Positions 8,238 through 62,437 of a stretch of DNA of 64,000 nt are shown here, in pieces. Source of the DNA: Candidatus Magasanikiibacteriota bacterium (GTDB lineage: Bacteria > Patescibacteriota > Patescibacteriia > Magasanikbacterales > GWA2-37-8). Numbering within the stretch: the first letter of the stretch is position 1; the number at the start of each line of letters is the position of its first letter. The stretch is from assembly GCA_041666745.1 (NCBI GenBank), contig JBAYGI010000003.1, positions 76,782 through 140,781 on the forward strand. Reading direction: 5' to 3'. The translations under genes were made by a program, and so were the position numbers. Under the pieces are notes generated by a model, which saw only the letters and a list, made by a program, of their open reading frames with translations, had not been told where the DNA came from and searched no databases.

Positions 8238-10037
8238 CTAAGATAATATTTGTTTAATTTCTTTCATTTCTTTTTCTGACAAGAAGGGGTACATGTCATC
8301 AATTGAAGTAGAAACAAGCTTGCCGTCTGGCAATTTTTTCGAAGACACTGTGGGGATAATCAAATGATTTGTTTGACAAATAATTTCGCAAATTTCCGGT
8401 CCGGTAGAATCTAAAACTTTTTTAAGTTTATTATTTATATTAATACTATTGCTAATTCTAGTAAATTTTATGCCATAGGCACCAGCAATCTTCTTTGTTG
8501 AAGGAAAACTTACTCCACTGGATTCGCTTTCTCCAATTAATCTTTTTTCTAAAAATAGAGACTGGGTATTCCGAATTGAAAGATAACCGTTGTTGTTTAA
8601 TACAAAAATTTTTATTGGCAATTTATTATAAACGATTGTTTGTAATTCATGGATATTTGTTTGAAACGAGCCGTCACCAACTATACAAATTACTCTGTTT
8701 TTTTTATTAGCCAGACAAGCACCAGTACTCGCGGGCAGTGCAAAACCCATTGATCCGCTAGAACTTGGTAATATCAAACGCTGACCTTTCTTAATTTTTA
8801 TTGCTTGTCTAACTACGTAAAAGGCGGAGCCGGCATCGGTCGTTATAATATCTTTGTTATTCATAACGTCAGAAATTTTATCAACAAAGTGATGAATATT
8901 CAAAGGAGTTTGTTTGGCATATTCTGGCAAACAAACCGGATATGATTCACGTAAATTACGACAAATATTTGACCAATTTGATTTGAAGCTAAATGTTAAA
9001 TTGTTTAGCCGTTCCGATAATTTATCAAGAAACACTTTGGCATCAGAGATAACCAGAAGATCTATCTTGATAGTTTTTTTCTTGTGTTCAGTACCATCTA
9101 TGTCCACCACAATCTTTTTTGCATCAGGCGCAAATTTTTCATATTCATAACCGATCAGAGGAACACTTAAACGTGAACCAATACTTATAATAAGATCGGA
9201 ATTTTGAATTGTCATATTAGCAGCCCTTTCCCCTTTCGTACCAATTCGACCAACAAAAAGTGGGTGAGAATCATGTATTATATCTACCCCCATAATGCCA
9301 GAAACAACTGGAATGTTAAGCTTCGCTATTAAACTATTAAATTCATCTACGGCACCAGCTATGCGAATACCATTACCCGCTACTATTACCGGTTTGCGAG
9401 CTTTTTTGAGTAATTTTATAATTTTTTCTATTTTTTTATCTAATTCAGTGTCGTGGTCACTTATTGATTTAACATCGGGATGAAAACCTTTTAATTCTTC
9501 AACATTAATGAATGACCCTTGAATGTCTACTGGTATATCAAGCCAGACAGGACCCGGTCTTCCATTTTTAGCGAGATAAATCGCCTTTTCTAGATGATAC
9601 CTAATTCCTTTAGGATCATCCACTACAACCGCATACTTAGTCATACTCTTAACTACCGGTAATATATCAACGGCTAGAGCACCAAACTGTCTCAAACCGG
9701 GAATGTGTGCTTCGTGGACAGTTTCCTTTTTTTTGCATTGCCCAGAAATAATTAGACAGGGAGTAGAGTCTTGCCAAGCACACATCAAACCCGTAATGGT
9801 ATTGGTGCCACCTGGGCCAGAAGTTACCATTGCTACACCAATTTTGCCTGTTATCCGGGCATAGCTATCTGCAGCCATTACTGATGCCTGCTCATGATGA
9901 TTACATGTGAATTTTATTTTTTTATGACAAGCCACAGCATCATTTAGATACATCGCACCACCACCAGTAACTAAAAATATATGACCAACGCCTAAATCAT
10001 ATAAAGTAGAAACAATGTAATCACTTACTCTTATCAT
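8238..10037 (-). CDS. Thiamine-diphosphate-dependent enzyme, acetolactate-synthase large-subunit-like, paralog 2
   Basis: 599 aa and collinear with the 4942-6732 paralog: SDYIVSTLYDLGVGHIFLVTGG...CNHHEQASVMAADSYARI...GPGGTNTITGLMCAWQDSTPCLIISGQ...GDGSFQTNIHELQT. Confidence 0.75.
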   Translation of the reverse strand: MIRVSDYIVSTLYDLGVGHIFLVTGGGAMYLNDAVACHKKIKFTCNHHEQASVMAADSYARITGKIGVAMVTSGPGGTNTITGLMCAWQDSTPCLIISGQCKKKETVHEAHIPGLRQFGALAVDILPVVKSMTKYAVVVDDPKGIRYHLEKAIYLAKNGRPGPVWLDIPVDIQGSFINVEELKGFHPDVKSISDHDTELDKKIEKIIKLLKKARKPVIVAGNGIRIAGAVDEFNSLIAKLNIPVVSGIMGVDIIHDSHPLFVGRIGTKGERAANMTIQNSDLIISIGSRLSVPLIGYEYEKFAPDAKKIVVDIDGTEHKKKTIKIDLLVISDAKVFLDKLSERLNNLTFSFKSNWSNICRNLRESYPVCLPEYAKQTPLNIHHFVDKISDVMNNKDIITTDAGSAFYVVRQAIKIKKGQRLILPSSSGSMGFALPASTGACLANKKNRVICIVGDGSFQTNIHELQTIVYNKLPIKIFVLNNNGYLSIRNTQSLFLEKRLIGESESSGVSFPSTKKIAGAYGIKFTRISNSININNKLKKVLDSTGPEICEIICQTNHLIIPTVSSKKLPDGKLVSTSIDDMYPFLSEKEMKEIKQILS

Positions 10038-20921: not shown

Positions 20922-23012
20922 TCATTTTTTCTTAGCATTTAAAGCTGCAGCAGGCATAGAAATTTGGGCAAATACACTTTTATCTTGATCAGTCAAAACC
21001 GCATTATTCTTTGTGGCTAAGTCCAAAACTTCTTTCATCTTTTTTTCATCACCAGTCATTTTGTAGGTATAAGCTAACCTCCAATAACTTTCACCTATTC
21101 TAGGATTATCCAGAATGGTCTGTTCTAACATTTTTATCGCCTCAGCTGGTTTGTTTATTTGCAGCTTTATACCAGATAAACTATAAATAATCTGTTGTCT
21201 TTTTGGAGATTTTACTAGAGCATCTTCAAGTACACTTTCAGCTTTAACTAAATATATACTATTATTATTCATGGTCGCCTCCAATTGATACATCTGAGCC
21301 AAAGTCAACTGATTGCGAATATCCAAAGGATGTAATATTAAATTTTTTTCTAAATGATTAGAAACTACCGTTAACAACTCATTTGATTTGTCTTTTCCTA
21401 TTTTTTGCCAACCACTATTTAAAGATTGGACTACCGAACGACCAATATCACTACGAATATCATCAATATGAGGTGAAGTAAATTCTAACGCTTCTTTCGC
21501 TACCGGTAAACCGGCTATAGGGTCAGTCATTAAAGCACGAATGGCATTTAGAGTTTTTTGATTAGCTCGCGCCGGTTGGATATTAAAAATAAAAATCAAC
21601 AAAAAACATAACAACCCACAACTGGTTAAAACTCCATTACCGATTTTTTTATCTAGTGTTTGGGGTGGTACCGTCTGGATTCCCGCTTTCGCGAGAATAG
21701 CAGTGTTTGGATTCCCGCTTTCGCGAGAATGACAAGCTATAGAGCTGATTAATGATAGCCAAAAAAATAAATAAACATAGGAAGTCGGATCTTCAAAAAC
21801 AGTAATTACACCAACAAAATGCGCTGCTATAAAAGCTCCACCAATTATCATAAAATGACAATCGATTGTTTTTTTACGATAAGATGATATCAACCCAATA
21901 ATCGCTACTGCAAAGACACCCAGATAAACCAACAATCCAAAAGCACCCTGAACAGCCATAGTATTTACCACAATATTGTGAGCGTTATCAAACCAAGTTT
22001 CACCATAACCAAAATCCAACGATTTTGGATTATAATGCTCATTAAAAGCGTAGAAATAATTATTTGGCCCCCAACCAAAAATTGGTTTTTCTTTCCAGCT
22101 TTCTATGGCAATTTGCCAAGCGACCCATCTAGGACTTGCCTGTACATCACCAAGAGATGTATTGACCGCTCGACCAACTGCTGGGATATTTTTTACAAAA
22201 GATGTTTGTTTAAAAGCATAGAGCAGAGAAATAGCTACTATTCCTAATATGGTTACAGCCAATAAGCTATAACGTATTTTAGGATATTTTTTTAACACCA
22301 CAATATACCCTATCAGTGCAAAAGCCATTCCAGCCACTAAACCCAACATCGTGCCTCGATTGGCACTCCAAAACATCCCCATAAAACCAAAAAAACCCAC
22401 CGCACCGTAAAACCATTTCCACAAAGTATTTTTTTCACGAGTAAATAACAATATTGACAAAAACATCAAAAACAATCCGTAACCACCAACATAAATTGGG
22501 TTTCCTAATGTACTACTCACACGCGTTGATCCCTGATTCAGCAATAGATCAGGCATCTGAGTTTGTAGCCAAGCAATAAACATCACCAAAAATCCACCAA
22601 CTAAAAATATTCTACCGGCCCATTTCCAATCCTTCCAATCTTTTAAAACACCGGCACATACGAAATAAAACGAAACATAATGCAACAGAGTAAACAACCC
22701 CAACATGCGTTCATGATTATCCCAAAAACTATGGTAAACATCAGTACCAACAAAAGTAGACACTGCAAAACTTAATAAAAATAAAAATACCGCAATATTT
22801 AAATAATTAAATTTTGGTTTGTATTGTTGCCAATTAATAGCTAACAACAACACATATAGTACTACTATAATTTCCACCAACGAACGAAAGAAAATAATCT
22901 TTGGGACGATAAACGGAAAAATATATGAACTCGGAAACACTAATAGGGGCACGAAAAATACTGCGTAAATAAGCCATTTTATCACCTGTTCGATTTTTTG
23001 TTTCATAAACAT
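20922..23012 (-). CDS. O-antigen-ligase/polymerase-like (Wzy_C-type) polytopic membrane protein with a C-terminal TPR-repeat domain
   Basis: 696 aa. An N-terminal ~420 aa with about 10-12 TM helices includes the loop WDNHERMLGLFTL. An extra TM follows, then a C-terminal soluble TPR-like region (LAYTYKMTGDEKKMKEVLDLA). Confidence 0.55.
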   Translation of the reverse strand: MFMKQKIEQVIKWLIYAVFFVPLLVFPSSYIFPFIVPKIIFFRSLVEIIVVLYVLLLAINWQQYKPKFNYLNIAVFLFLLSFAVSTFVGTDVYHSFWDNHERMLGLFTLLHYVSFYFVCAGVLKDWKDWKWAGRIFLVGGFLVMFIAWLQTQMPDLLLNQGSTRVSSTLGNPIYVGGYGLFLMFLSILLFTREKNTLWKWFYGAVGFFGFMGMFWSANRGTMLGLVAGMAFALIGYIVVLKKYPKIRYSLLAVTILGIVAISLLYAFKQTSFVKNIPAVGRAVNTSLGDVQASPRWVAWQIAIESWKEKPIFGWGPNNYFYAFNEHYNPKSLDFGYGETWFDNAHNIVVNTMAVQGAFGLLVYLGVFAVAIIGLISSYRKKTIDCHFMIIGGAFIAAHFVGVITVFEDPTSYVYLFFWLSLISSIACHSRESGNPNTAILAKAGIQTVPPQTLDKKIGNGVLTSCGLLCFLLIFIFNIQPARANQKTLNAIRALMTDPIAGLPVAKEALEFTSPHIDDIRSDIGRSVVQSLNSGWQKIGKDKSNELLTVVSNHLEKNLILHPLDIRNQLTLAQMYQLEATMNNNSIYLVKAESVLEDALVKSPKRQQIIYSLSGIKLQINKPAEAIKMLEQTILDNPRIGESYWRLAYTYKMTGDEKKMKEVLDLATKNNAVLTDQDKSVFAQISMPAAALNAKKK
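21677..21730. repeat. Two tandem copies (32-bp period) of the imperfect hairpin unit GGATTCCCGCTTTCGCGAGAAT inside the ligase-like CDS; related to the hairpin at 45831-45850
   Basis: Read directly: 21677-21698 and 21709-21730 are identical 22-mers. The stem is attcccgc/gcgagaat and the loop is tttc. Confidence 0.6.
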
Positions 23013-28997: not shown

Positions 28998-29132
28998 TAT
29001 AGAAGACGAGAGAAAGTTAAAAGTGTTACACTTACCTATCGATGTAGTCTAGCCTGCCAAAAGTGATAATGCATATGATAGCAAAAAAGGGGGCGGTGGT
29101 CAAATATTACTTTTTCAAACTTTGAAACGCTT

Positions 29133-29264
29133 CGTATAATTTGTGACTCGTTTTGCTCTGGCTCTGAACTCGCCTGAGGGCTCAAACAGCAGAGCCAGCG
29201 ACGCAAAATTCGTCTACAAATTATTACTCAGCTTTTTCAATGTTTTCAAAAATAATATTTATTA
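29133..29264 (+). ncRNA. Copy A of a ~130-nt conserved noncoding element (candidate structured cis-regulatory RNA / repeated leader module); copy B is at 41843-41977
   Basis: About 75% identity to 41843-41977. Shared blocks are AATTTGTGACTC...CTCTG.CTCTGAACTCG...CAAACAGCAGAG.CAGC.ACGC...GTCTACAAATT...TTTTCAATGTT...AATATTTATT. The compensatory change is CTGGCTCTG/CAGAGCCAG (A) versus CTGACTCTG/CAGAGTCAG (B). Confidence 0.4.
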
Positions 29265-29290
29265 TTTGTATAGACTAGTGTATACAAACT
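29265..29290. promoter_or_regulatory. Operator-like 28-bp imperfect palindrome, site 1 (TTTGTATAGACTAGTGTATACAAACT)
   Basis: The inverted copy is at 29383-29410. Each is palindromic about ACTAGT except for a symmetric G/C pair. Confidence 0.5.
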
Positions 29291-29382
29291 TCGGGTAATT
29301 GACCATCTAGCCGATAGGTCAGAATAGCAGAAAATTGACTTGTGGTCAATAGATGGGCTTGACAAAACTCCAAAAATCTGGT

Positions 29383-29410
29383 AGTTTGTATACACTAGTC
29401 TATACAAACT
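29383..29410. promoter_or_regulatory. Operator-like palindrome, site 2 (AGTTTGTATACACTAGTCTATACAAACT), the exact reverse complement of site 1
   Basis: It lies ~20 nt downstream of a TTGACA box (29359-29364) and ends 2 nt before the ATG of the HTH gene at 29413. Confidence 0.5.
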
Positions 29411-29412
29411 TT

Positions 29413-29748
29413 ATGGAAGACCAAAAAATTACAACTCCGACTGCAGACCAAAAGCCCAAAGAAATGATTCGAGTGTCTATTTCTGAGGCGGCGCGTTTAT
29501 TTGGGGTAAACTCACAAACTATCCGTCGGGCTATCTCTGCACAAGAAATCACCTATGTTATTGTGTCCGGACGTTACAAAGTAAATTTTGAAAGTTTGGT
29601 GAAGTGGTCACAACACCACACAACCGTCAAAAACAAACTGGCCAATAAAGGGATCGGGCAATTCGTAGAAAAATGGAAAATTAAAAATCCTCTCTACTCC
29701 CCCAACCCAAAATCACTTAATGTAAAAAAAGATGAAATCCCTCAATAA
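29413..29748 (+). CDS. Small helix-turn-helix DNA-binding protein (excisionase/AlpA-like HTH_17-type), probable autoregulator
   Basis: MEDQKITTPTADQKPKEMIRVSISEAARLFGVNSQTIRRAISAQEITYVIVSGRYKVNFESLVKW. The start is moved from 29353 to the internal ATG 29413. The longer form would read through the operator palindrome and the TTGACA box. Confidence 0.5.
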   Translation: MEDQKITTPTADQKPKEMIRVSISEAARLFGVNSQTIRRAISAQEITYVIVSGRYKVNFESLVKWSQHHTTVKNKLANKGIGQFVEKWKIKNPLYSPNPKSLNVKKDEIPQ

Positions 29749-31593: not shown

Positions 31594-31600
31594 ACAAAAA

Positions 31601-31702
31601 CACCACGCACATATAACCACCTTTTCGCTTTTTTCAGCCGCGAGGCTGAAAGGATGAGCCTCGGCTCATAACCCGCTCAAAGGTAACTATATGTGCGTGG
31701 TG
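31601..31702. repeat. Structured intergenic repeat, copy 1: conserved two-hairpin core nested in a 15-bp outer inverted repeat, between convergent genes
   Basis: Outer IR CACCACGCACATATA (31601-31615) / TATATGTGCGTGGTG (31688-31702), flanked by an A-run and a T-run. Core TTTTCAGCCGCGAGGCTGAAAGGATGAGCCTCGGCTCATAACCCGCTCAAAGG. Confidence 0.6.
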
Positions 31703-31724
31703 TTTTTTGATCCTTCTGTAAATA

Positions 31725-39308: not shown

Positions 39309-39339
39309 TTAACTGCGACAAAAAATAGAGAGAGATTAT

Positions 39340-39403
39340 ATTTTTGCTTTTTTTGCCCGCGAGGGCAAAAGGATGAGCCTCGGCTCATAACCCGCAAAAA
39401 CAT
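39340..39403. repeat. Structured intergenic repeat, copy 2 (between the GT4 gene and the convergent methyltransferase gene)
   Basis: TTTTTTTGCCCGCGAGGGCAAAAGGATGAGCCTCGGCTCATAACCCGC. Outer IR TATATTTTTGC / GCAAAAACATA. The 3' end is truncated relative to copies 1 and 3. Confidence 0.55.
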
Positions 39404-39427
39404 AACTTATCCCGATTTTTTTATATT

Positions 39428-41731: not shown

Positions 41732-41842
41732 CAAACCTCGCTATTTGCCTGTCTATTACCGGCGTGGTAATATAGATACTAACGATAAATATTACATATG
41801 ATCTAAAAATAAATATTTCCCTTCACTCACAGTGAAAATACT

Positions 41843-41977
41843 CGGTAAATTTGTGACTCACTCGGCTCTGACTCTGAACTCGTCGCTTGACGCTCCTCAA
41901 ACAGCAGAGTCAGCCACGCCTCGTTTGTCTACAAATTTTACCTCATATTTTCAATGTTCGTTCAGGAAAATATTTAT
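41843..41977 (+). ncRNA. Copy B of the ~130-nt conserved noncoding element, immediately upstream of glyA
   Basis: See copy A (29133-29264). It ends 25 nt before the glyA ATG. Confidence 0.4.
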
Positions 41978-42001
41978 TTTTTTCTTAATTTTTACAATAT
42001 T

Positions 42002-43249: not shown

Positions 43250-43280
43250 ACAAAAAAAATACAAAAAACAAAACACAGAA

Positions 43281-43372
43281 GTAGCGATAGATGGTCTTTG
43301 AGCGGGTTATGAGCCGAGGCTCATCCTTTTGCCCTCGCGGGCAAAAAAAGCGAAAAGACTATCTATCACTAC
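43281..43372. repeat. Structured intergenic repeat, copy 3 (reverse orientation), nested in a 16-bp outer inverted repeat between glyA and pyk
   Basis: Outer IR GTAGCGATAGATGGTC (43281-43296) / GACTATCTATCACTAC (43357-43372). Core GAGCGGGTTATGAGCCGAGGCTCATCCTTTTGCCCTCGCGGGCAAAAAAA is the reverse complement of the copy 1/2 core. Confidence 0.6.
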
Positions 43373-43425
43373 GAAAAAAAAATTGGAACAAAAAAACTCG
43401 TTTAATGTAAACGAGTTTTTATTTG

Positions 43426-45792: not shown

Positions 45793-45850
45793 ATCCCGAC
45801 TAAGTCGGGATATGGAAACAGACTTGTTAGATCCCCGCTTTCGCGGGGAT
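45793..45850 (-). terminator. Tandem hairpin terminator downstream of ftsZ
   Basis: Minus strand: the ftsZ stop, then ATCCCCGC-GAAA-GCGGGGAT, then ATCCCGAC-TTA-GTCGGGAT followed by TGTTTTTT. The first hairpin (45831-45850) shares the GATCCCCGCTTTCGCGGGGATGAC unit with the in-CDS repeat at 21677. Confidence 0.6.
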
Positions 45851-51676: not shown

Positions 51677-54600
51677 CTATGGCGCGTAATTCATTTTAAT
51701 AAAACTACGGATCATATTTATTTCTCCGATTCTATTTGGTATTTTAGCAACAACACTATCTGGCGCTTTTTTAATATTGAACACATGCCAAAACTGCGCC
51801 GCATCATTATCTGAAGGTATAGCTTGATTTAAATAATAAGTTTTCGCAGGACGAGCAAAATGTCTAAGATTATCATCGCTCTCCGGCACATATACTTCCA
51901 CTTTTAATTTTGCCGAATTTTTGAGATTTTTCATCGTGTCTGCTGTTTTTATATAAAAAGCATAAGATGAGGTAACCATTTTTGAAGTGTCGATAGTGAA
52001 GGATTTTACATTAGAGGTGTTGGTATTTTTAAAACCGTGGTACCAAATACTAGCCAACGGATTGATATTTGGGGCTGTATAATAATTGATCCCGGTAGAA
52101 ATATTGATAGCAGGTGAATTATCTTCCAACGAAGTGATGATACCAGTTTGCGAATTAACACCACCTGGCACAAGAAAACCAGTATTAAATCCAACATCTC
52201 CAACCCAGCTAACCACTACACGCACATCCTGTGGCCTAGTATCGTCGAAAATTACCGGCGACAACAGCAGATTATATTTATCCGGAGTAGTAGTGCCAAA
52301 AACCGGAAAATCTATCATATGCTCGGTGGCAAAATCGGAATTAATTGCTAGGCGGTAAATTTTACTTTGAGACTTATCAGAACAAACCGGATCACTATTT
52401 ATACTAGCAACCACAGACTGATCACCTAGATAAGGGTGTAGTTTATAATCAAAAATGTTGTCATTTAACTTATACGAGAAAAACGCTACGCCCGTTGTAT
52501 CTCCAATAGAAGACAACGACTGTGTAGTGCTGACATACAGCAATCCAACGTCACCATCCTCACTATTGTTAGATAAAAGCGGATTGTTTGATAATGGTTC
52601 CAACACATTTATTAACGCGCCAGATATTGGTGATCCGCCGGTTTTTAAACCACACTCAACACATTTATTGCTGATACTACTACAATTATTAATACAAGTT
52701 TTGATGCCGATCTGAGTTGTGAGATTGGTCCAAGTTTTGTCCTTATAAAATTGTAAGCTACCAGAATTCAAATGCAAATTGTATTCTTGATCACAAGGTA
52801 AAACTATATAACCATTTTGATCTGGATGTTTTTCTAAAACTAATTTATTCCACCAATCATTTGTAATATATGTACTAGTTACGCTGGAATACAAAGAATT
52901 GCCACTCACCTCACATTTTTCTGTACCATTTATCACTCCATCGCCACAATATCCTGAAGCATCAACGGAAATATTATTTTTACAATCCCAAGAACAATAA
53001 ACGCACGGCTTATTATATCCTGATGTACAAGCCACACCATTTTTATTTCCATTATCACAAGCTTCACCGGTTTCTATTTTGCCATTTCCACAACCTGTCT
53101 CAGTTGTTGGTTTTACTTCTTCGGCTGTAGCTATTTTTGCCTGACAAAAATTTTCACCATTGTTATACAAATCTGTGATTTCACCAGCGGTTAAAGTGCG
53201 ACCAAACAGATGCATTTCATCCATACTACCTTTGAACCAATTGTCAGCCCGCCCAATCCAAATTGGATAATTATTGTCCGCTTTTAATTTTGTACTACCA
53301 TTGACAACTCCCGTTCCTTTATATTGCCCATCTACATAATATTTAACTTGACGTTGCGCGTCAACCGTAACCGCAACAAAATACCACACACCGACTGACA
53401 AATCTACCGGAACAGAACTAATACCAAAAATATTGTCAGTTTTGGATCCTGGTGGCGGTCCAGAATAAAAATGTAAAAGATTTATTTTATTTCCACTTTT
53501 AACAATGTAAAAATTATAATCACGATTGTTACTAATAGCTTTACCCTCTTGTTTGCTTATAACCGCATGATATCCGTCACTACTATCCCCATCCACATTT
53601 ATCCAAGTAGCGAAAGTTAGTTCGTTTACATCAAAACTTGCACTATGATCAATAGTAAAATAATTTGATATGCCGTTGAAATGCATCGCTTGGTTTTTAT
53701 CTCCATTAAATGACGAGATTGGGGTCGGGCAACCGGTGTTGGCAACACCAGAGCAATAAGCTGAATTTAATAAGGATATACCTGATTTGGCCTGCCCTTT
53801 ATTTAAAATATAACTTAAACCACCAATGTTGCCTGTCTCGTATTTCGGCCACCCAGCATGATATGTAATTACATCATCAAAATTAAAATATAATATTGGG
53901 GAGGTGGTAACCGAATTGTATACCCAACGACAACCAGAACCACACACTCTATTGCATGTCACACCGCTAATCGTATCAACTTTGTTTCCATCACATTCTT
54001 CACCAAAATCTTTTTGTACAATAGCATCACCACAATATGGACCGTGTGCTTGACAATCTAAATTACAAGATGTAGTTGGTGTTAAACCATAACGACTGTT
54101 GTTGAATGAAACTTGAATACATTTTCCTACAATTCCAACCAACGCGTTATCTTTGAAACTACCCCAAAGATTTTGTTGTATTTTGCAATCGTCATCAACA
54201 TTACATGGCTTTGCTCCTACAACACCACTGGCACACCAACCAAGATCCTTATCTTTTCCGGCTTTGTAAAAATCAAAATTCGTATCACAAACTTCATTGC
54301 CTTTTGTATCAACATCTCCATTTCCGCAGCTAGAAGACAAACCACTACAAGTTGGATTACAATGATTATATTTTCCATTCAACGCACCCTCATCACAAGT
54401 TTCCCCCACTTCAACTTTGCCATTTCCACATTTGGATAATATGCCACATTTTGTAGTCGTTGCATTTTTTGACCATTTACAATCACTGGAACAAATATCT
54501 CCCTTCAAATCATCTGCAAAACTTCCCCCAACACAATCAGCCTGATTCCACACCACACTACCTTTTGGATCACATTCTTCTCCTTTGTTTAAATTTACTT

Positions 54601-57600
54601 TTCCATCACCGCATGTTCCTTGATTCATCGTGGAAATTTCATTATTTTGGTTACAAATACCATTGCCACTGGTATCCAAAATATTAAAGTAAGCAGGTTT
54701 GGTGATCAAATCTTTCACTAGATTTCCCAGATTGTCTATCACCAATCCCGAATCTTCCATGCGTAATTTTACTAAATAACCCGGAGTTTTTGGATCAGTA
54801 GAAGTGGCAAAATAACGATAGGCTAAAGAATTGTTGGCACACGCAAAACTAAATCGCTTGTCAGCGGTGCTCCAACCGGTATCCGGAGCGTGCAATACAC
54901 AAGTCTCAGTCTGTGAGCCGGTTTTTGTTTGACAAGTTTTATCATCGATACAGAAAATTCCGGTGGAAGACGCGCAAGTACCAGCAACACCGAGTTTGTT
55001 TATCGGATCAGCTGGTATTGCCGTACCAGTCAGTGTTGACCAAGATGGCCAGGTACTAACGGTTTGTCCGGATAAATATGATCCCACTTTGAGATCCGGA
55101 TATGTATTGCCGTGCCCACTACTATAATCAAGCAAATCTTTTTCGATAGTGCTCATATCCTGAATACGCGAGAAGTTTCTTTTTATTTTATCTTTTTGTA
55201 CCGAACACACTTCACCGTTTGCGCAATCAAAATCTGAAATACACACAGTAGTATCCCCCGGATTTTTCATATCTTTGCCACAATATCCGTAGTTGGTCAA
55301 ATTGATATTAAATTTCAAATTCTTTATCAAATTTTCAAATACTTTTCTAGTTTCAGGGGCGGCATTTTCATTGATACTAAACAAATAAATATTGGTTTCC
55401 AAATTACCGTGACCAATAAGACCGGTTGAATCAAAATTTAAAGCATTTACATAAATATTACTACCGTCGGATATGGCCGGATATCCATCGATAGGTGGAA
55501 GGTTCTGCACTGTCGGAGCAAAACCTTTGGCCTTGGTAAACCAATCACTAGGTGACAAATGTGCCTTGTTGGATAAAACTTGAATACCAATCGCATCATT
55601 ATTTTTATTATTAGTGAAAATAAAGCGTTTGAAAACTTCGCTATCTTGGAAAAAACTGACAGCGCTCTTTGTGCATGTCTGTTTGGTTTGGCTACCATTT
55701 GTTCCCAGACAAGAGGCACTATCATGACTATTTTTCCAAGCCAGATAATCAGCTGAACCGGAATCAGGACAACTCCAACCACTGCAATACATTGGATTTT
55801 TATTACTATCTACATAAAAAACATTATCCAGTTTATCTGAATCATAATACGCGCAGGTAACAGCGTAATAACTAGACGAGAAAAAGCTTTTTCCATCGCC
55901 TGAAGAAAACTTATAAAAATCTTTACAATCAGTATCAGAATTACAGTGGAGACCGTCAAGATCGCACACTCCGGATTTTGTGGCTACTGTATCCCCTGTC
56001 TGAACAACCGGTCGCAAGTATGGCAGATCATCTGTATAACCATGATCACCATTATCCGCGCAATAATAAGTACTAAAATTGAAGTAGCCTTTACCAACAT
56101 TGGCGGCTGGTATTTCTGTGCTATCAAAAATATTTTTATCTAAATCAAAACCATCGTTATTTCCCACTTTATCTTCATATGGGAAAATAATAGTTGGTTT
56201 GGTTTGACCTTGAACAATCGCCTGTTTTGGTGGCCAAGGATTTTCGCATAAAAATACAATGATATGAGATTTTCCCGTACCAACCAATCCGGTTTGTGGA
56301 GTATATGTATTTTCGGTTAGATTGGCGGCGGCATGCACATCCACTTCACCATTGTTATTTTGTGAAGTAATAATATTAACGGAAGAAGTAGCGCCGGAAA
56401 TTAATACATAAGGATTATTTTTTGGACCCCACTGGTATTCCCAACTATATCCTGATACCGGTTGAATCAACTGAAGGTTTTCAGTAACACCTTTGGCGAC
56501 CAAACTGGCATCGGCATTTGGAACAGAAAAATAATATTGATCCGGATCAATCGACACGTCAGAAATAGCACAAATTGTTTTTCCGGTTTTAAACCTCCAA
56601 CCAACCGCCTTACCGTCCGATTTGCTTTCAATACTTACCCCTTGAATATTTTTTATTCCTTTTTTCAAAATCACCACGTATTCGGTCGAAGGAGCTAAGG
56701 GATTATTTAGACTAAACAAAACTTGTGAGCCACCAGTATCATCTCTTACTACCTCTACTCCACCAATATCCGCGCCGGCACACCAAGTGTTGGCAGTAAC
56801 TTTGTTGCCAAAAATACTTTTAATGGTAATGATTATTTTATTCCAAATGTTTTGATACCATGGCAACAAAGAATCAGACGAAGCTAAAAATGAAGTAGTC
56901 TCATGGACATCTTCTAGACCGCCAGAACATGGGGAAGCCGCACTGCGAGCGATGACAAAATTACCCGGTAAAGTGGCCGGATCAATAATACTATCAAAGC
57001 TAGCTGAAATAAAAGTATTGATACAAACATTTGTGGCAAATTTACCTGGATCAGTACTGGTATTACCCGGATACACATCAATTAATTTTGATTTGAAATA
57101 ACAACAAGAATTCAGCCCTACTCCGACATTTTTATCGCCTTTGTAGGCTTCTTGACATTGCTCATCGGTTTTATAACCACACAAAACTTGGTATTTACCA
57201 ATTCCACTGACATTTTTATCAGTTATCGCGCCTTTAATATCACTTACTTGAGCGGATAATGTAGAACTCACAATATTTCCCACCGATCCAGCTTGACCAA
57301 TGGCCAACACCCAAGGATCAACCAAATCTTTGTGCCAAATATTAGTCAAATATTTATCTGTTTCGCAAATCTCATCCTCACCAACACCGACGACACCGTC
57401 ACCACAAACTGATGGTTTACTATACATCAAAGACGATCCGACATGTTGCGCATTTTCATCACAACCTTCTTTGTTGGCAGAACAGGTTGTGTCCGGATTG
57501 GTTAAATTTTGGTCAAAATTACTTTTGTTCGCTACCAAACATCGATCATTACACCAATCACTGTGCTTGCCATTGGGGATACCGTTTGTTGTTTCACAAC

Positions 57601-60600
57601 CCACATCTTCGTCTGGACTGGTGACCCCATCACCACATTGACTGTATGATTGACTGCAGAAAAAATTGTAATCTTTTTGTTCAAAACCTCCAAAAGCCGG
57701 AGCTATTTTGGCGTCATTGGCAAAACACCATTGCGAAGACAATCTAGTTCCCAAATGCAAACATTGAGCCGAACAAAGTATCGATGAAGTGGAAACATTT
57801 TGATCCGCTGACACTCCAACATCACAATCTTCACCACTACCAATCATACCATTGCCACAAATCGAAGCACTGACCTCTTTGGCAGCGGTTTGCATTTTTG
57901 AACCAGTGTGCAAACAAAAAGTATTGCAACCTTCTTTGCTTTTTGGATCATTGATATCACAGGCTTCACCTTTTTCTTGTGTAACAAAACCATCACCACA
58001 CAATCCCACATCAACTTTACTAATCGTAGTGGTGGCATTTGGATTGCCAATAAATCTACAATTCAAACCACAGCCTTTTAGTTTCAAAGGTGGATCACAA
58101 TCTTCGCCGGCTTCTACTTTTCCATTCCCACAAACCGGATATGCCGCGCTTCCCTGTCCGGATGGAACAGTACTGCCTTTCAAAATACAGTTGGCAGTAC
58201 AAAATGCTGACGATCCTTTTGTTTTAAATGATTGTACTGTAGCCACACCGACATCTGAAGATGACCAACTCCAATTTTGATTCCAAGGGTTTAATTTTTG
58301 TCCGGTCACACTACAAGCATCCGGAGCGGCAAAAGGCTGAGCTTGAAATATAGCCAAATCTTTTAATTTTTTGGCGGTAAATACCTTTGGCAAAATCGAA
58401 ACATGATCAACTTTACAAGCTTCTTTTTTTGTTCTAAATCTCCAGGTAAATATTTTATTGTATGGTTTGGAAAAACTTTCCGGATCATTCGAAAAAGCTA
58501 CAGACCACAGTTGAGCGCCATTATCCACTCCGGAAGCGCTGACCGATGACAACATTACTTGATACAGAGTGTTTGGTTTCAAACTTTCAGAACCTTTGTC
58601 GTTGGCGATTTTTAAAATTGTATGACCGGATGCTTCATCAAAAGAACTATCCAAAGCAACCGGCTCACTGGTACTAAAACAATTTTCATCATTACACTGA
58701 ACTAATTTTATTGCCGGAGAATCTTTGGTAACATTGTGGTTGGACATTGTAATATTAAATTTGGCGCCAACGGATGCATTGGTACAGGCTTCCAAACAAT
58801 TTGGCCAATAATCCACTACTTCCGGATTGGATAAATCAATGGTTAATGGGCTACTGCCGGTTTTACTAACAAAAATTTTATCAACAGAAGAAGTGGAGGC
58901 GGTCGCTTTTACATCGACGCTATCATTGGCCACACCTACACCTACAGTATTGCCCAAAGTATTTACTTGAGTGTTTATTTTATCACCTGCTCCATCGATG
59001 GTCGCGTAAATTTTTCCGGCATTTTTATTATCCACAACCCATTTCCAATCAAAACCGGATACATCCATCATGGTGCAATATTGAGTACTTAGACCATTGC
59101 CTTTATAAAAAATATCAAACACATCTCCACCGGTTGAGTGGTAACGCATTGGAGATTCAAGAATTTTTGCCCAAAATTCATTTGGAGTAACGACTACTTT
59201 TTTCAAAGCACAATCACCAATTCCGGTTTTAAAAGAAAAACAATAGGCTGTTCCAACACCACATGGATTGGAGGCTACCAACTTTACCGATTGTCCTTTT
59301 TTATCCGGTACTGAAGAAATACTATCCTTCAAAACAACTTGAAAAAGTGTGCTTGACGCCCATTTTCCATCCTGAGATTTTATTAACAAATAAGGACGCG
59401 CATTTTGAGACGCGTCAACAGCCGCAGAATTTAATTTATAACTATCATCGGTTAACAAAATATTTTTTGCCTTCTGACACACACCGTCGACATCGATACT
59501 TTCACAGGCATTAATAGTAACTGAATTATTGTTGACAGTGGCTGGGTTTAAATCCGCGCTAAATTCAACTGTCACCAATGCAGTTTGACAAACTTTGCTG
59601 GCATCATTACTACCACCTTCATTCCACTTGGTTGAAGGAGATGGTGAAGGTAAATTTTTGCCCAATTCAGTGTTGTGATCACAACGCTCTATTACTTGTG
59701 GTGGTGGAACAATTTCCTTGGTAGAAAACATCCAAACAAAACCGCTGGATTTAAACTCTCCTTTACATAACTCCCCTTTTGGTTTGCACATGCCGGCTTC
59801 ATCGCCTGTTTTACAGCATTTATCACTATTGGAAACACAGTCATTTTTGGTACAATCACTGGTAGAAAATAATAAACCATTACTTTGTTTTTTGTCTGAT
59901 CCACGATAAGCAAATACCAAACCGGAGGTAATATTTTTATCATTTGGCACCGATGAAAAGGATTGCGCGCTAACATTTGTAACACTGTTGCCGATGAGAG
60001 TGTTGAGAATATCATTGGATGCACCGCCGGTTTTCCAAAAATAAAATTTGGTGACTTTGTCCAAATATTCACCGGATACTGTGACTGTGTTTGGAAAAAC
60101 AAACGGCACCGCTCCGGATACCGGAGAAATTTTACAAATTCCCGGACTTGGATCACCGGTATTTATCATGACAAATTTATTATCATCCAAAACACTGCCC
60201 AATTCACTGACTGAATTGTAAACTTGAATGGTATATCTTTTGCTGTTTGTATCTAATCCCGGTGGAACTTTCACCACTATTTGATTATCTTTCCAAAATG
60301 AATTTTTACAAGCAACTGGAAAATTGAATACACCGTCAGGGGCGGCCGCGCCATTGAGTTTGAACCAGACACTGCCGATTTGATTACCGAAATTTTTGCC
60401 GGTAATGGTGAGATAATCACCGATAGTAGTAATAGCCGGAGCAGAAATTTCAGAAATTAATGGAGCGTCTTGGTTTGATCCGGAAATAGTGAACAGAACC
60501 GAATTGCTAGTTTGATTATTGCTGTTGGTCACCTTCACCCCATAATTGCCATTGCCCAAAGAAGTTGGCGCTACAGATAATATAGTATCATCAGCCCAAC

Positions 60601-62437
60601 CTTCGATTTTGGTTTTTGTTTTATCACTGAAAGTAACAAAACTTTTTACGACATCAAAAGCGCCAAAATTTTTACCTTTCACTGTTATGCTGGTACCGAC
60701 CGATCCGTTGTTTGGATTTAATCCGCAAATACCCGGATGAGAAATATTTGTTAAAGTAAAATTGGAAACTTTTTTAAAACCATCGCCGGTGGTATCAAAA
60801 TATTTAATATTAAAAACATCTGAACCGATAGCATTTGGACTAAATACCGCAATTTTACCGCTGATTATATTTTCCGGAACCAAAACAATAATTTGGTTAT
60901 CACTCCAATTATTGAAGCTGGCGCCACAATTTACCACTTGAGCCTCGACCCAATCGGTTGGTTGTTTTACATCCGGATTTGGGACTTTGGCAAAATAAAC
61001 ATGCCCTTTTGTGCCACCGAAATTTTTACCAAAAATTGAAATATAATCACCGACGGCAGCGCTAGATGGAGAAAAGTCGGTGATATAAGTTTTTTCTACA
61101 CAAGTACCTTCCGAATCACCGGCATTTTGTTTTTGACAAAACCCACTGTAACAATCGACATCTTTTGTGCATTTATCTCCGGAACAAACCCCGCACTCCC
61201 CACCACAATCAATAAATTTCTCTCCCGGATCAAGAGTCAAATCAAAACAGTGCTTCGGTTTTAAAACAACCGTAGAATTGTCCTCATTACTATTGGCCGC
61301 CCAATCCAAACCAATAGCTTTTAGAGAATGCTCGCCGATATTTAATTTGTTGGTAGGCCAAATAATCGTGGCGGTATCAGATTTTTTACATCCGCTAAAT
61401 GGAACACTATCAACCAACATGCCATCGGAATTCAAAACTATATTTTGCAAACCGCCATCATCTTCAAAATGAACTTTTACACTGATATTATCCCCTTGTT
61501 TTAAATTGGTATCGGAATTTTTTGGATATAAAATATTAATAACCGGATTTTTTCTATCCACTCCGTCACCGGAAGTAAAATTTACATCGGCGCATTTTCC
61601 GGTACTGAAAATACAATTCAGGTCTTTTCCACCGGCGCTTTGAATTCCTTTGCCTCCATCTTTTATTTTTATTTTATAAGTGGTAGACGCGGCAAAACAA
61701 TCTTTGCCGGTGTCTGGAGTAGGACAAACTCCGTTGGTCGGTTTGAAATATGCGATATGATGATGACTGGTCTGTATCGACCATTCACCAACCACCGGCA
61801 CAGAGGTAGAGGCGTTTTCTACAACGATTCTATCTTTCAAAGAGTCCACATCCACATCCAGATTAAAAACAATTACCGGTGCCACATTTTGCACACAAAC
61901 ATTTCCCGTTGCCGGCATTTGAACAATCGCGAACTGCCCGGAAGCGCAATTGTCATACGCACACGATGAAAAACAAGATGGACAATCTCCACCACAACTA
62001 GCCCCACCATTAGCTTTTTGCGCTTCACACAATGCACTAGAAACATTTCCCGTGGTTGCCTCCACTAATTTATTCATTACAAAACTCACGATGGCATAAG
62101 CGGATAAAATAATAACCAAACCAATCGTGGCATTAATCAATATCTTTTTTGATGTAGCGACTTTTTCATCATCACCACCGGCCGTCATCCATAAATAACC
62201 AGCATACAAAATCAGACACAAAGCTACTATCCCCAATAGTCCCAGAGCGGCTTTGATGATTTTGGCAACAATTGTACGAATATCAGTAGTCGGCAGACCG
62301 GTCGCCGCGGCTTCTTTCAAACCAACATCCAAATTGGAAGCTTGAGCGTGGACCAAACTATTAAACGCCAAAAATCCGGTTACAAAAAACAATGAGAAAA
62401 TTAAACACAAAACTAATTTTTTATTTACAAATTTCAT
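51677..62437 (-). CDS. Giant (3586 aa) Cys-rich cell-surface protein: signal peptide, two adjacent TM helices (pilin/VirB2-like hairpin), IPT/TIG domains, >10 CGxGxxxxGExCD cysteine-rich repeats, LamG/ConA-like domain
   Basis: N-terminal MKFVNKKLVLCLIFSLFFVTGFLAFNSLVHA, then LGLLGIVALCLILYAGYLWM / ATIGLVIILSAYAIVSFVM. IPT/TIG patterns (ITDFSPSSAAVGDYISIFGKNFGG; ISAPAITTIGDYLTITGKNFG). Repeats CGNGKVEAGEDCD, CGDGFVTQEKGEACD, CGNGKVEVGETCDEG and others. LamG_3-like ...WYFVAVTVDAQRQVKYYVDGQ...IWIGRADNWFKGSMDEMHLFGRTLTAGEITDLYNNG. Confidence 0.7.
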   Translation of the reverse strand: MKFVNKKLVLCLIFSLFFVTGFLAFNSLVHAQASNLDVGLKEAAATGLPTTDIRTIVAKIIKAALGLLGIVALCLILYAGYLWMTAGGDDEKVATSKKILINATIGLVIILSAYAIVSFVMNKLVEATTGNVSSALCEAQKANGGASCGGDCPSCFSSCAYDNCASGQFAIVQMPATGNVCVQNVAPVIVFNLDVDVDSLKDRIVVENASTSVPVVGEWSIQTSHHHIAYFKPTNGVCPTPDTGKDCFAASTTYKIKIKDGGKGIQSAGGKDLNCIFSTGKCADVNFTSGDGVDRKNPVINILYPKNSDTNLKQGDNISVKVHFEDDGGLQNIVLNSDGMLVDSVPFSGCKKSDTATIIWPTNKLNIGEHSLKAIGLDWAANSNEDNSTVVLKPKHCFDLTLDPGEKFIDCGGECGVCSGDKCTKDVDCYSGFCQKQNAGDSEGTCVEKTYITDFSPSSAAVGDYISIFGKNFGGTKGHVYFAKVPNPDVKQPTDWVEAQVVNCGASFNNWSDNQIIVLVPENIISGKIAVFSPNAIGSDVFNIKYFDTTGDGFKKVSNFTLTNISHPGICGLNPNNGSVGTSITVKGKNFGAFDVVKSFVTFSDKTKTKIEGWADDTILSVAPTSLGNGNYGVKVTNSNNQTSNSVLFTISGSNQDAPLISEISAPAITTIGDYLTITGKNFGNQIGSVWFKLNGAAAPDGVFNFPVACKNSFWKDNQIVVKVPPGLDTNSKRYTIQVYNSVSELGSVLDDNKFVMINTGDPSPGICKISPVSGAVPFVFPNTVTVSGEYLDKVTKFYFWKTGGASNDILNTLIGNSVTNVSAQSFSSVPNDKNITSGLVFAYRGSDKKQSNGLLFSTSDCTKNDCVSNSDKCCKTGDEAGMCKPKGELCKGEFKSSGFVWMFSTKEIVPPPQVIERCDHNTELGKNLPSPSPSTKWNEGGSNDASKVCQTALVTVEFSADLNPATVNNNSVTINACESIDVDGVCQKAKNILLTDDSYKLNSAAVDASQNARPYLLIKSQDGKWASSTLFQVVLKDSISSVPDKKGQSVKLVASNPCGVGTAYCFSFKTGIGDCALKKVVVTPNEFWAKILESPMRYHSTGGDVFDIFYKGNGLSTQYCTMMDVSGFDWKWVVDNKNAGKIYATIDGAGDKINTQVNTLGNTVGVGVANDSVDVKATASTSSVDKIFVSKTGSSPLTIDLSNPEVVDYWPNCLEACTNASVGAKFNITMSNHNVTKDSPAIKLVQCNDENCFSTSEPVALDSSFDEASGHTILKIANDKGSESLKPNTLYQVMLSSVSASGVDNGAQLWSVAFSNDPESFSKPYNKIFTWRFRTKKEACKVDHVSILPKVFTAKKLKDLAIFQAQPFAAPDACSVTGQKLNPWNQNWSWSSSDVGVATVQSFKTKGSSAFCTANCILKGSTVPSGQGSAAYPVCGNGKVEAGEDCDPPLKLKGCGLNCRFIGNPNATTTISKVDVGLCGDGFVTQEKGEACDINDPKSKEGCNTFCLHTGSKMQTAAKEVSASICGNGMIGSGEDCDVGVSADQNVSTSSILCSAQCLHLGTRLSSQWCFANDAKIAPAFGGFEQKDYNFFCSQSYSQCGDGVTSPDEDVGCETTNGIPNGKHSDWCNDRCLVANKSNFDQNLTNPDTTCSANKEGCDENAQHVGSSLMYSKPSVCGDGVVGVGEDEICETDKYLTNIWHKDLVDPWVLAIGQAGSVGNIVSSTLSAQVSDIKGAITDKNVSGIGKYQVLCGYKTDEQCQEAYKGDKNVGVGLNSCCYFKSKLIDVYPGNTSTDPGKFATNVCINTFISASFDSIIDPATLPGNFVIARSAASPCSGGLEDVHETTSFLASSDSLLPWYQNIWNKIIITIKSIFGNKVTANTWCAGADIGGVEVVRDDTGGSQVLFSLNNPLAPSTEYVVILKKGIKNIQGVSIESKSDGKAVGWRFKTGKTICAISDVSIDPDQYYFSVPNADASLVAKGVTENLQLIQPVSGYSWEYQWGPKNNPYVLISGATSSVNIITSQNNNGEVDVHAAANLTENTYTPQTGLVGTGKSHIIVFLCENPWPPKQAIVQGQTKPTIIFPYEDKVGNNDGFDLDKNIFDSTEIPAANVGKGYFNFSTYYCADNGDHGYTDDLPYLRPVVQTGDTVATKSGVCDLDGLHCNSDTDCKDFYKFSSGDGKSFFSSSYYAVTCAYYDSDKLDNVFYVDSNKNPMYCSGWSCPDSGSADYLAWKNSHDSASCLGTNGSQTKQTCTKSAVSFFQDSEVFKRFIFTNNKNNDAIGIQVLSNKAHLSPSDWFTKAKGFAPTVQNLPPIDGYPAISDGSNIYVNALNFDSTGLIGHGNLETNIYLFSINENAAPETRKVFENLIKNLKFNINLTNYGYCGKDMKNPGDTTVCISDFDCANGEVCSVQKDKIKRNFSRIQDMSTIEKDLLDYSSGHGNTYPDLKVGSYLSGQTVSTWPSWSTLTGTAIPADPINKLGVAGTCASSTGIFCIDDKTCQTKTGSQTETCVLHAPDTGWSTADKRFSFACANNSLAYRYFATSTDPKTPGYLVKLRMEDSGLVIDNLGNLVKDLITKPAYFNILDTSGNGICNQNNEISTMNQGTCGDGKVNLNKGEECDPKGSVVWNQADCVGGSFADDLKGDICSSDCKWSKNATTTKCGILSKCGNGKVEVGETCDEGALNGKYNHCNPTCSGLSSSCGNGDVDTKGNEVCDTNFDFYKAGKDKDLGWCASGVVGAKPCNVDDDCKIQQNLWGSFKDNALVGIVGKCIQVSFNNSRYGLTPTTSCNLDCQAHGPYCGDAIVQKDFGEECDGNKVDTISGVTCNRVCGSGCRWVYNSVTTSPILYFNFDDVITYHAGWPKYETGNIGGLSYILNKGQAKSGISLLNSAYCSGVANTGCPTPISSFNGDKNQAMHFNGISNYFTIDHSASFDVNELTFATWINVDGDSSDGYHAVISKQEGKAISNNRDYNFYIVKSGNKINLLHFYSGPPPGSKTDNIFGISSVPVDLSVGVWYFVAVTVDAQRQVKYYVDGQYKGTGVVNGSTKLKADNNYPIWIGRADNWFKGSMDEMHLFGRTLTAGEITDLYNNGENFCQAKIATAEEVKPTTETGCGNGKIETGEACDNGNKNGVACTSGYNKPCVYCSWDCKNNISVDASGYCGDGVINGTEKCEVSGNSLYSSVTSTYITNDWWNKLVLEKHPDQNGYIVLPCDQEYNLHLNSGSLQFYKDKTWTNLTTQIGIKTCINNCSSISNKCVECGLKTGGSPISGALINVLEPLSNNPLLSNNSEDGDVGLLYVSTTQSLSSIGDTTGVAFFSYKLNDNIFDYKLHPYLGDQSVVASINSDPVCSDKSQSKIYRLAINSDFATEHMIDFPVFGTTTPDKYNLLLSPVIFDDTRPQDVRVVVSWVGDVGFNTGFLVPGGVNSQTGIITSLEDNSPAINISTGINYYTAPNINPLASIWYHGFKNTNTSNVKSFTIDTSKMVTSSYAFYIKTADTMKNLKNSAKLKVEVYVPESDDNLRHFARPAKTYYLNQAIPSDNDAAQFWHVFNIKKAPDSVVAKIPNRIGEINMIRSFIKMNYAP

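Follow-up and report, generated by a model that had tools for sequence, protein, structure and literature searches.

A repeated palindromic unit with a conserved two-hairpin core at gene 3' ends in Candidatus Magasanikbacteria, a candidate bidirectional terminator

Three copies of a structured repeat in a 64-kb stretch of a Candidatus Magasanikiibacteriota contig (hereafter the window, that is, the whole 64,000 nucleotides analyzed) belong to a family in which the entire hairpin, and not its core, is the unit that has been duplicated to new loci, lost, replaced and flipped. This unit measures roughly 110-130 bp and has two small hairpins (H1 and H2) enclosed by a long helix (P1). Judging from its sequence and its gene context, it may be a palindromic repeat complete in itself, which is transcribed, works as a bidirectional terminator or 3'-end hairpin and spreads as a whole unit; we give this reading about an even chance (roughly 0.5). 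A bidirectional terminator or 3'-end hairpin is the simplest function because of the context of the copies, the tracts that flank them, the folding of both strands and the interchangeability of the unit with plain terminators.

A preliminary description of the window had reported three copies, and all three were recovered close to where it had placed them, with cores at 31627-31676, 39346-39395 and 43302-43351. Their features, together with those of a neighboring hairpin, are the following (loops in brackets).

31596..31707, + strand: copy 1, whole hairpin unit (A-tract, P1 5' arm, core, P1 3' arm, T-tract)
31596-31624 / 31679-31707: arms of the copy 1 outer inverted repeat, 29 nt, 90% complementary
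31627..31676, + strand: copy 1, 50-nt conserved core (GCUUUUUU, H1, GG, H2, AACCCGC)
31632..31651, + strand: copy 1 H1, UUU-CAG-CC [GCGA] GG-CUG-AAA, in which the middle three pairs are the hypervariable covarying pairs
31630-31631 with 31652-31653: possible extension of copy 1 H1 by two U·G pairs
31654..31669, + strand: copy 1 H2, AUGAGC [CUCG] GCUCAU
39324..39417, + strand: copy 2, whole unit, core at 39346-39395; outer P1 eroded with several mismatches, A-tract and T-tract retained
43280..43373, - strand: copy 3, whole unit, core at 43302-43351, P1 arms at 43281-43297 / 43354-43373
43392..43420: plain hairpin terminator, bidirectional (AAAAACTCGTTTA ATG TAAACGAGTTTTT), lying between copy 3 and the stop codon of pyk; outside the repeat family, but in the same glyA/pyk junction as copy 3

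The 50-nt cores of all three copies follow the pattern GCTTTTTT-H1-AAAGG-H2-AACCCGC. The 25-mer GGATGAGCCTCGGCTCATAACCCGC occurs exactly three times in the window and was found in none of 100 dinucleotide-preserving shuffles, and a repeat scan of the window returned the same copy pairs together with the outer inverted repeat of copy 1. A covariance model of the family (R1, built from 83 distinct members) gave scores of 101 bits for copy 1 (31605-31698), 88 bits for copy 2 and 103 bits for copy 3, and its scan of the window detected no weaker further copies. Copy 1 folds at -59.5 kcal/mol on the + strand (z = -9.95) and at -64 kcal/mol on the - strand (z = -10.0), both strands being equally strong in this respect. 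The fold of copy 2 is weaker (-38.1 versus -61.5 kcal/mol for copy 1), with good pairing only in the inner TATATTTTT/AAAAACATA part, and its orthologue in L084 (6581-6673) has an intact P1. The outer inverted repeats reported earlier for each copy exist at copies 1 and 3, and the outer stem of copy 2 is eroded. The difference reported in the H1 of copy 1 is also real: relative to copies 2 and 3, three adjacent base pairs are changed on both sides, from U-A to C-G, from G-C to A-U and from C-G to G-C.

The flanking genes are convergent at all three copies, and the pairs first proposed were borne out by Pfam: an unknown 590-aa protein and metK, a GT4 glycosyltransferase and a methyltransferase, and SHMT (glyA) and pyruvate kinase. 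The window has only three convergent junctions among its ~49 genes because nearly all the other genes are on the minus strand; a family copy is present at 3/3 of these junctions versus 0/~45 of the others. Copies 1 and 2 are flanked by an A-tract and a T-tract, and copy 3 is T-rich on both sides in the orientation of the element.

A search of a species-representative genome collection with an exact 22-mer from hairpin 2 and the tail gave 29 genome loci, all of them in Candidatus Magasanikbacteria MAGs, with at least 13 copies in a single MAG. Some of the MAGs with such loci are mislabelled Gammaproteobacteria. Metagenomes were searched with a pattern anchored solely on the unpaired junction segments, both hairpins being left free, and 96 loci were obtained, six of which (five distinct sequences; two pairs identical) were chance matches. 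With these scans of the collections, the family known from three copies grew to at least about 100 distinct ones (52 distinct cores) that vary while preserving the structure, all of them confined, within the collections scanned, to Candidatus Magasanikbacteria MAGs or metagenome contigs. R1 added about a dozen diverged copies when run on the retrieved loci. Since the copies were retrieved by pattern, estimates of conservation are biased. Two variants were seen, one in which a two-hairpin insertion of 72 nt separates H2 from AACCCGC (L084 and L027/L076) and one with a changed base of H1 (UUUCCU...AGGG; L004, L028 and L102), and some copies are neighbors in tandem or inverted pairs (L067 and L085). 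There were 0 matches to the element among 2.9 million viral contigs (IMG/VR). Comparison of the whole window with Rfam 15 at the gathering threshold returned a tRNA-Val alone, and copy 1 searched at E<=10 returned spurious miRNA-precursor hairpins (25-27 bits versus gathering scores of 81-100). Literature searches returned no description of such a Magasanikbacteria/CPR repeat or of a terminator-type MITE of this kind.

All copies fold alike, with P1 and two hairpins. The core is a highly conserved three-way junction, and P1 closes about 56-60 nt, in the order junction C-GC-U, H1, H2 directly after it and then AACCCGCUC. H1 is UUU-NNN-CC[GCGA]GG-NNN-AAA (10 bp counting two U·G pairs) and H2 is AUGAGC[YNYG]GCUCAU (6 bp). 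Among the 83 distinct sequences, H1 and H2 were paired in 99.4% of cells, and this value fell to 40-54% when the partners were slid out of register. Changes on both sides were present in 10 of the 14 H1/H2 pairs, and the observed values were reached in 0/500 shuffles. The middle three pairs of H1 are hypervariable, with 13 triplets whose complement always matches. The AU-rich P1 has a median length of 27 bp and as a rule lies between an A-tract and a T-tract. It covaries at all 20 modelled pairs; its inner 10-12 bp are semi-conserved while its outer part evolves fast. G·U pairs occupy 2 of the 1162 H1/H2 cells. The outer P1 is 91% Watson-Crick, and a strand-specific excess of G·U pairs in it, sought as a mark of the RNA strand, was absent (28 wobble-type mismatches forward versus 32 reverse). 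Energies calculated on the whole of P1 favor the reverse strand because of a recurrent A·C mismatch in inner P1, which becomes a G·U pair on the reverse strand only. By eye, the core resembles neither a hammerhead (CUGAUGA/GAAA), a group II intron domain V, a tRNA-like minihelix/CCA nor SRP/RNase P.

The preliminary description had treated the outer stems as locus-specific terminators, different at each copy, and in one of its readings as pre-existing hairpins whose loops the core targets. We compared orthologous loci, defined by the similarity of their flanks, in which the element is present or absent. Where the element is absent, the hairpin is missing in full, along with its outer stem (L087/L117 versus L017, L028 and L075; L018 versus L007; L016 versus L099; L047 versus L126), and in L025, L123 and L038 an unrelated ordinary A/T-flanked terminator hairpin stands at the element-free orthologous site. 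In none of the nine empty or alternative orthologous sites inspected was the outer stem found alone, without the core. The empty sites suggested earlier as a sign of mobility were therefore found, with the whole hairpin as the polymorphic unit, and this presence/absence polymorphism means that the element is mobile in the broad sense.

Comparison of the arms of non-orthologous copies showed that 42 pairs have at least 12/14 matches, versus 4 in a reversed-arm null, and that the best pairs have 14/14. In alignments of paralogues (e.g. L029, L065, L011 and L002, among which L029 and L002 are from one MAG), the similarity extends over the A-tract, P1, the core and the T-tract and goes no further. 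Outer arms are unrelated in most copy pairs, and kinship of the arms is found within subfamilies only; the arm of copy 1 (CACCACGCACATA) resembles those of L009 and L054, and the arm of copy 3 (GTGATAGATAG) resembles those of its orthologue L084 and of L050. As arms are common to non-orthologous loci, along with the A/T tracts, the supposedly locus-specific stems are diverged parts of the element itself. The conservation has no sharp boundary at the edge of the core, since it declines gradually across ~12 nt on each side, down to 0.02-0.2 bits in the outer arms, which are followed by the A-rich and T-rich tracts. The plain terminators seen here have stems of 9-13 bp, much shorter than the median P1 of 27 bp. 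A mobile element restricted to the core (~50-60 nt) and inserting into the loops of terminator hairpins already in place would agree with the nesting of every copy in a longer inverted repeat, the outer part of which is different in most copies, and the ordinary A/T-flanked hairpins of these genomes would be possible targets. With no stem lacking its core at the nine sites, arms and tracts recurring between loci, a gradual decay at the core edge and a P1 that exceeds the plain stems, such an insertion is largely ruled out, and we hold it to be very improbable.

The orientation of the unit was the same in 40 and flipped in 14 of 54 orthologous pairs. In the pair L021/L059, the flanks are 97% identical while the element is in opposite orientation with several arm changes, and the hairpin is more diverged than its flanks. 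In the pair L087/L117, arm positions that are not complementary flip together with the core, which means that the whole unit was inverted and not the loop alone; this also counts against the earlier picture of a core nested in unrelated hairpins, as does the gradual fading of its conservation. As these non-complementary positions flip too, the inversions cannot be put down to homologous recombination between perfect arms alone.

The states of single sites are equally varied. The glyA/pyk site holds a minus-strand copy in the window, a copy with a different P1 in L033, a plain hairpin and no element in L038, and, in L084, a copy with a related P1 and a core in the opposite orientation that carries the extra 72-nt domain. 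At the 590-aa/metK site, copy 1 corresponds in L078 to a copy in opposite orientation with an unrelated P1 (GACCGGTACAAA), like that of L004. A single intergenic site may hold different subfamily members, in either orientation, a plain terminator or nothing. Orthologous copies persist where the flanks are 75-85% identical, with an almost unchanged core. The copy of L087/L117 is missing from three relatives, L017 and L028 (flank identity of 82-87%) and L075 (75-80%, the most distant); with distance judged by flank identity, its absence from all three, L075 included, favors a gain in L087/L117.

This last comparison bears on the possibility of an ancient, purely vertical set of paralogous terminators with no ongoing mobility, in which copies would have been removed by deletions only and the stems would have diverged long ago. 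Many copies are indeed kept at orthologous loci, as in the 40 pairs of the same orientation, and P1 has diverged in a compensatory manner between orthologues (e.g. L005, L020 and L022). Long palindromes are prone to deletion, which also counts for this explanation. It does not agree, however, with the different arm subfamilies found at one site (CACCACGCACATA in copy 1 versus GACCGGTACAAA in L078), with the probable gain in L087/L117, or with a hairpin that differs beyond its flanks between strains whose flanks are 97% identical, and we regard it as improbable.

The contexts of the copies, counted by orthology group, are 19 convergent, 21 co-directional forward, 5 co-directional opposite, 3 divergent and 7 unknown, and 45 of the 48 classified groups lie downstream of at least one gene. 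The statement that all copies lie between convergent genes thus holds for the window (3/3), but for 19 of the 48 groups in the family. Between co-directional genes, the forward orientation is preferred (21 groups versus 5). With a tract defined as at least 6 of 8 positions, both the A-tract and the T-tract are present in 32/34 convergent copies, versus 13/30 and 6/11 co-directional ones, so the terminator-like, A/T-flanked character of the stems first noticed in the window stands, with a strong tie to convergent junctions. About 30% of the co-directional copies have no U-tract and, for this reason, termination cannot be the sole role. The copies show the layout of a bidirectional terminator, with an A-tract on the 5' side, a T-tract on the 3' side and a position at gene 3' ends. 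They were not called by a simple terminator scan of the window, and with an AU-rich P1 of 27 bp and a structured insert they differ from the short-looped, GC-rich and compact stem (about 5-14 bp) of such terminators. A 27-bp stem that closes an insert of ~60 nt is atypical of intrinsic terminators, and the conservation of the junction nucleotides exceeds what a terminator cap needs, for which a simple tetraloop would suffice. On the forward strand, copy 3 is downstream of pyk's own plain terminator.

In the self-contained terminator repeat that we favor, the unit would be transcribed within 3' UTRs or intercistronic RNA, where P1 and the U-tract would act as an intrinsic terminator and as a protective hairpin of the 3' end. 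At convergent junctions, it would act in both directions and take the place of ordinary terminator hairpins. The tetraloop-capped core would pre-nucleate the folding of the long AU-rich stem and probably doubles as a site recognized by a protein or an RNase; the perfect duplex of 20-30 bp would serve as a substrate of RNase III. The copies without a U-tract within operons suggest, by analogy, a second role as an intercistronic stabilizing or processing hairpin. REP elements are known to act as such hairpins.

The loop of H1 is GCGA in 95/99 copies, and that of H2 is CUCG, UUCG, CUUG or UUUG. These GNRA-type and UNCG/CUUG-type (YNYG) loops exist on the forward strand only, and the forward core was the more stable in 44 of the 52 distinct cores. 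At the base of H1, CC/GG takes the place of the two U·G pairs (UU/GG) in the variant subfamily, in which the register is ambiguous. These features hint at a preferred RNA strand, as does the 21 to 5 orientation bias; the rarity of G·U pairs, the frequent flips and the inner-P1 A·C mismatch speak against one. The scarcity of G·U pairs is to be read with what is known of replication. A template switch within a palindrome can transfer a change from one arm to the other in a single event (PMC8794818) and, in quasi-palindromes, template switching yields near-perfect Watson-Crick arms, two-sided changes and in-place inversions (PMC8794818; PMC5453318). Both the rarity of G·U pairs and the flips in place point to hairpin-templated DNA copying. 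The compensatory changes had been taken in the preliminary description as a sign of selection on structure: the structure-preserving variation is real, but the conclusion calls for caution, as template switching can produce such changes and they are not by themselves proof of stepwise selection on an RNA. We infer that the unit evolves in place by hairpin-templated copying, that is, by template switching during DNA replication, which would account for the Watson-Crick arms, the compensatory changes with few G·U pairs and the in-situ inversions. For the loops and junction nucleotides, which are conserved, selection or recognition by some partner is still needed.

These same loops raise the question of whether the core is itself a functional structured RNA (a processed small RNA, a ribozyme, or a protein-sponge or recognition RNA), P1 being a mere closing helix and termination secondary or coincidental. 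The strict conservation of the junction nucleotides and of the GCGA loop in MAGs from different sites, the restriction of both loop types to a single strand and the 21 to 5 orientation bias speak for it, as do the optional domain of 72 nt, which is a trait of many structured RNAs, and the turn of UU/GG into CC/GG at the base of H1. The flips among close relatives, however, mean that the orientation of the core is not strongly constrained. No conserved promoter was found, nor any Rfam RNA family, the hammerhead, twister, pistol, hatchet and HDV-like ribozymes among them, even at E<=10, and 2 G·U pairs in 1162 cells are unusual for a helix selected as RNA. Pairing of the GCG in the H1 loop with either CGC, as a pseudoknot, is unsupported by covariation, since the loop variants GUGA, AUGA, UCGA and GCUA occur without a compensating change. 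The presence of dozens of copies at gene ends in a small genome would better suit a cis element. We therefore view a functional RNA core as possible but unlikely.

We also considered a selfish element acting at the DNA level, in which a ssDNA hairpin or cruciform would be acted on by a transposase or recombinase from another locus (as in REP/REPIN-RAYT, IS200/IS605 or MITEs) and the core would be conserved for this enzyme and not for the host. The gain, loss and replacement of whole units, in either orientation at one site, would be expected of such an element, as would arms common to subfamily members across loci, complementarity that is strictly Watson-Crick on both strands and the adjacent tandem or inverted pairs (L067 and L085). 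The core has TCAA at its end, and TTAC/TGAC/TATC closes many left arms, a loose resemblance to the cleavage sites of IS608 that is a lead only. On the other hand, none of the 49 ORFs of the 64-kb window has a transposase, RAYT, TnpA, reverse transcriptase, recombinase or integrase domain, and no split or ORF-carrying autonomous copy was found in about 0.9 Mb of fetched loci. No consistent direct repeat, and hence no evident target-site duplication, was seen at filled/empty pairs or paralogue boundaries, where the pairs are just 80-87% identical and repeats of the TA/TAT type could be missed. Conservation is lowest in the arms, where such an element would have its terminal inverted repeats, contrary to the pattern of MITEs and REPs; copies at orthologous sites outlast the divergence of their flanks (75-85% identity) with a nearly constant core, and the correlation of tracts with context indicates selection at the level of the host. 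This selfish origin is, in our judgment, unlikely to the same degree as the functional RNA.

A more novel reading appears a little more doubtful still. The unit would then be a new kind of non-autonomous CPR mobile element, a self-propagating, ready-made bidirectional terminator cassette whose three-way-junction core would be the handle for a putative mobilization or processing machinery. This machinery could be an enzyme recognizing ssDNA or RNA, or the core could itself be catalytic, and the host would tolerate or recruit the element for the terminators that it provides at the convergent junctions of a minimal genome.

Patescibacteria (CPR) have tiny genomes, and almost nothing is known of their transcription termination, RNA processing and mobile DNA. 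Here, a Magasanikbacteria clade fills gene ends, convergent junctions above all, with one repeated structured module. The covariance model R1 makes it an easily searchable motif with which termination and RNase processing in uncultured bacteria can be tested on metatranscriptomes. With a conserved apex and fast-evolving arms, the inverse of REPs and MITEs, and with flips at 97% flank identity, the family is a clean natural case of template-switch palindrome evolution, and it illustrates how seemingly compensatory changes can arise without step-by-step selection on an RNA.

Among known systems, the REP/BIME/REPIN elements of proteobacteria, mobilized by RAYTs, are likewise short extragenic palindromes in tens to hundreds of copies, found mainly between convergent genes and at the 3' ends of genes. 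Transcribed along with their neighbors, they are known to stabilize the upstream mRNA or to terminate transcription, and the replicating unit of a REPIN can be a long hairpin. In REPs, however, it is the stem, with its 5' GTAG-type tetranucleotide, that is conserved, and a RAYT gene accompanies the family; the present element has variable stems and a conserved apical two-hairpin junction, shares no stem and 5' tetranucleotide among all copies, has no RAYT in the 64-kb window and comes from a CPR host. MITEs such as the Correia elements of Neisseria and ERIC are also non-coding, 100-150 bp long, intergenic and co-transcribed, with inverted-repeat ends, and their long hairpins can be RNase III targets or terminators, found in either orientation and with presence/absence polymorphism as here (review PMC3184786). 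MITEs are marked by terminal inverted repeats conserved from copy to copy, by target-site duplications and by kinship with an IS element; in this family the terminal repeats are not conserved, and neither an evident duplication nor a related autonomous element was found in the loci compared. IS200/IS605-derived elements have subterminal hairpins for the Y1 transposase TnpA, insert 3' of a fixed tetra- or pentanucleotide and show a replication-strand bias. The present copies have two small hairpins and a TCAA-like right end with no fixed flanking tetranucleotide, and those of the window, within one skew domain, are two on the + and one on the - strand. In integron attC sites, the end boxes (R''/L''-L'/R') are conserved and the center is variable; here, it is the center that is conserved, the neighbors are housekeeping genes (metK, glyA, pyk) and the window has no integrase.

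Bidirectional intrinsic (Rho-independent) terminators have the same succession of A-tract, stem and T-tract at convergent junctions and are interchangeable with the element at orthologous sites. The stem of the element is two to three times longer than theirs and AU-rich, and its copies form a repeated family instead of independently evolved hairpins. The HMP-PP riboswitch (thiS motif, PMC6478431) is also a conserved structured RNA within the stem of an intrinsic terminator, but it is found as single copies in the 5' leaders of specific genes, whereas the element occurs dozens of times, at the 3' end of genes unrelated to each other, and its core showed no evidence of a ligand. Template-switch mutation of quasipalindromes (PMC8794818; PMC5453318) explains compensation in one event, perfect arms that have passed through no G·U intermediates, arm extension and in-place inversion of a segment bounded by a palindrome; being a process and not a family of elements, it leaves the spread to new loci and the conserved loops and junction unaccounted for. 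The element thus behaves like REP/BIME elements, hairpin-forming MITEs and bidirectional terminators, yet it departs from each of the repeat classes: conservation peaks in an apical three-way junction and is lowest in the arms, and no RAYT in the window, no IS partner and no evident target-site duplication was seen. An intergenic palindromic repeat with a terminator function is a known kind of element; this family would be a new form of it, in a poorly known phylum.

Two very close strains (loci L021 and L059, whose flanks are 97% identical) carry the hairpin unit, that is, the closing stem P1 with its core hairpins H1 and H2, in opposite orientations. The unit was also more changed than its flanks, with substitutions in the arms and at one pair of H1. 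Both the inversion and the surplus of changes over the surrounding sequence mark the hairpin unit as a local hot spot.

Other copies of the element differed in length or occurred in adjacent pairs, as follows:

L084 1246-1413, expanded copy
L076 46-212, expanded copy
L027 177-343, expanded copy
L067 6408-6501 and 6531-6625, adjacent copies in tandem
L085 8672-8766 (plus strand) and 8780-8873 (minus strand), adjacent copies in inverted orientation

The expanded copies share a conserved insertion of 72 nt, located between H2 and the AACCCGC tail and forming two extra hairpins, and one of them is found at the site orthologous to copy 3 of the window. The adjacent copies of L067 and L085 are separated by a gap of only about 15-30 nt.

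Two metagenome-assembled genomes, CAYZHG01 and CAZXEV01 (L007, L012, L014, L015, L021-L023 and L027), are titled 'uncultured Gammaproteobacteria', yet contain the element. The flanking sequence of L007, L021, L023 and L027 is common to element-bearing contigs, including those of Magasanikbacteria genomes (L018 and L025). On both counts, the Gammaproteobacteria labels look wrong. Comparison of L074 and L048 showed that the core and the right flank are in common while the left flanks are unrelated; the mismatch probably arose in assembly, where a short contig became chimeric by joining at the repeated core.

The window holds several other repeats and one giant ORF:

21673-21698 and 21705-21730, short repeat GTYTGGATTCCCGCTTTCGCGAGAAT, tandem pair with a spacing of 32 nt
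45825-45850, TGTTAGATCCCCGCTTTCGCGGGGAT, a relative of this short repeat, 24 kb from the tandem pair
29265-29290 and 29383-29408, the two 26-nt arms of a perfect inverted repeat, with 92 nt between them
51677-62437, minus strand, giant ORF of 3586 aa that has a T4SS_pilin-like segment at its N-terminus, as well as TIG, Big_5 and Laminin_G_3 domains

A small palindrome of the CCCGC...GCGGG type is present inside each of the three short-repeat copies. A small HTH_17 gene (29353-29748), located upstream of the unknown 590-aa gene that adjoins copy 1, has its start within the span of the inverted repeat. The giant ORF, which is followed by TSP3-repeat proteins, has internal DNA repeats corresponding to D1-D3 and D7 of the window repeat scan.

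A second repeat family, unrelated to the studied element, is present at 29123-29250 and 41833-41965, the two copies being 78% identical across about 140 nt. The copy immediately 5' of the glyA start was folded into a single long hairpin (41805-41981, -56.5 kcal/mol, z = -8.2). No Rfam family matched this second family; related sequence is also found in L029, L110 and L069, and in L038 the studied element occupies the equivalent position upstream of glyA.
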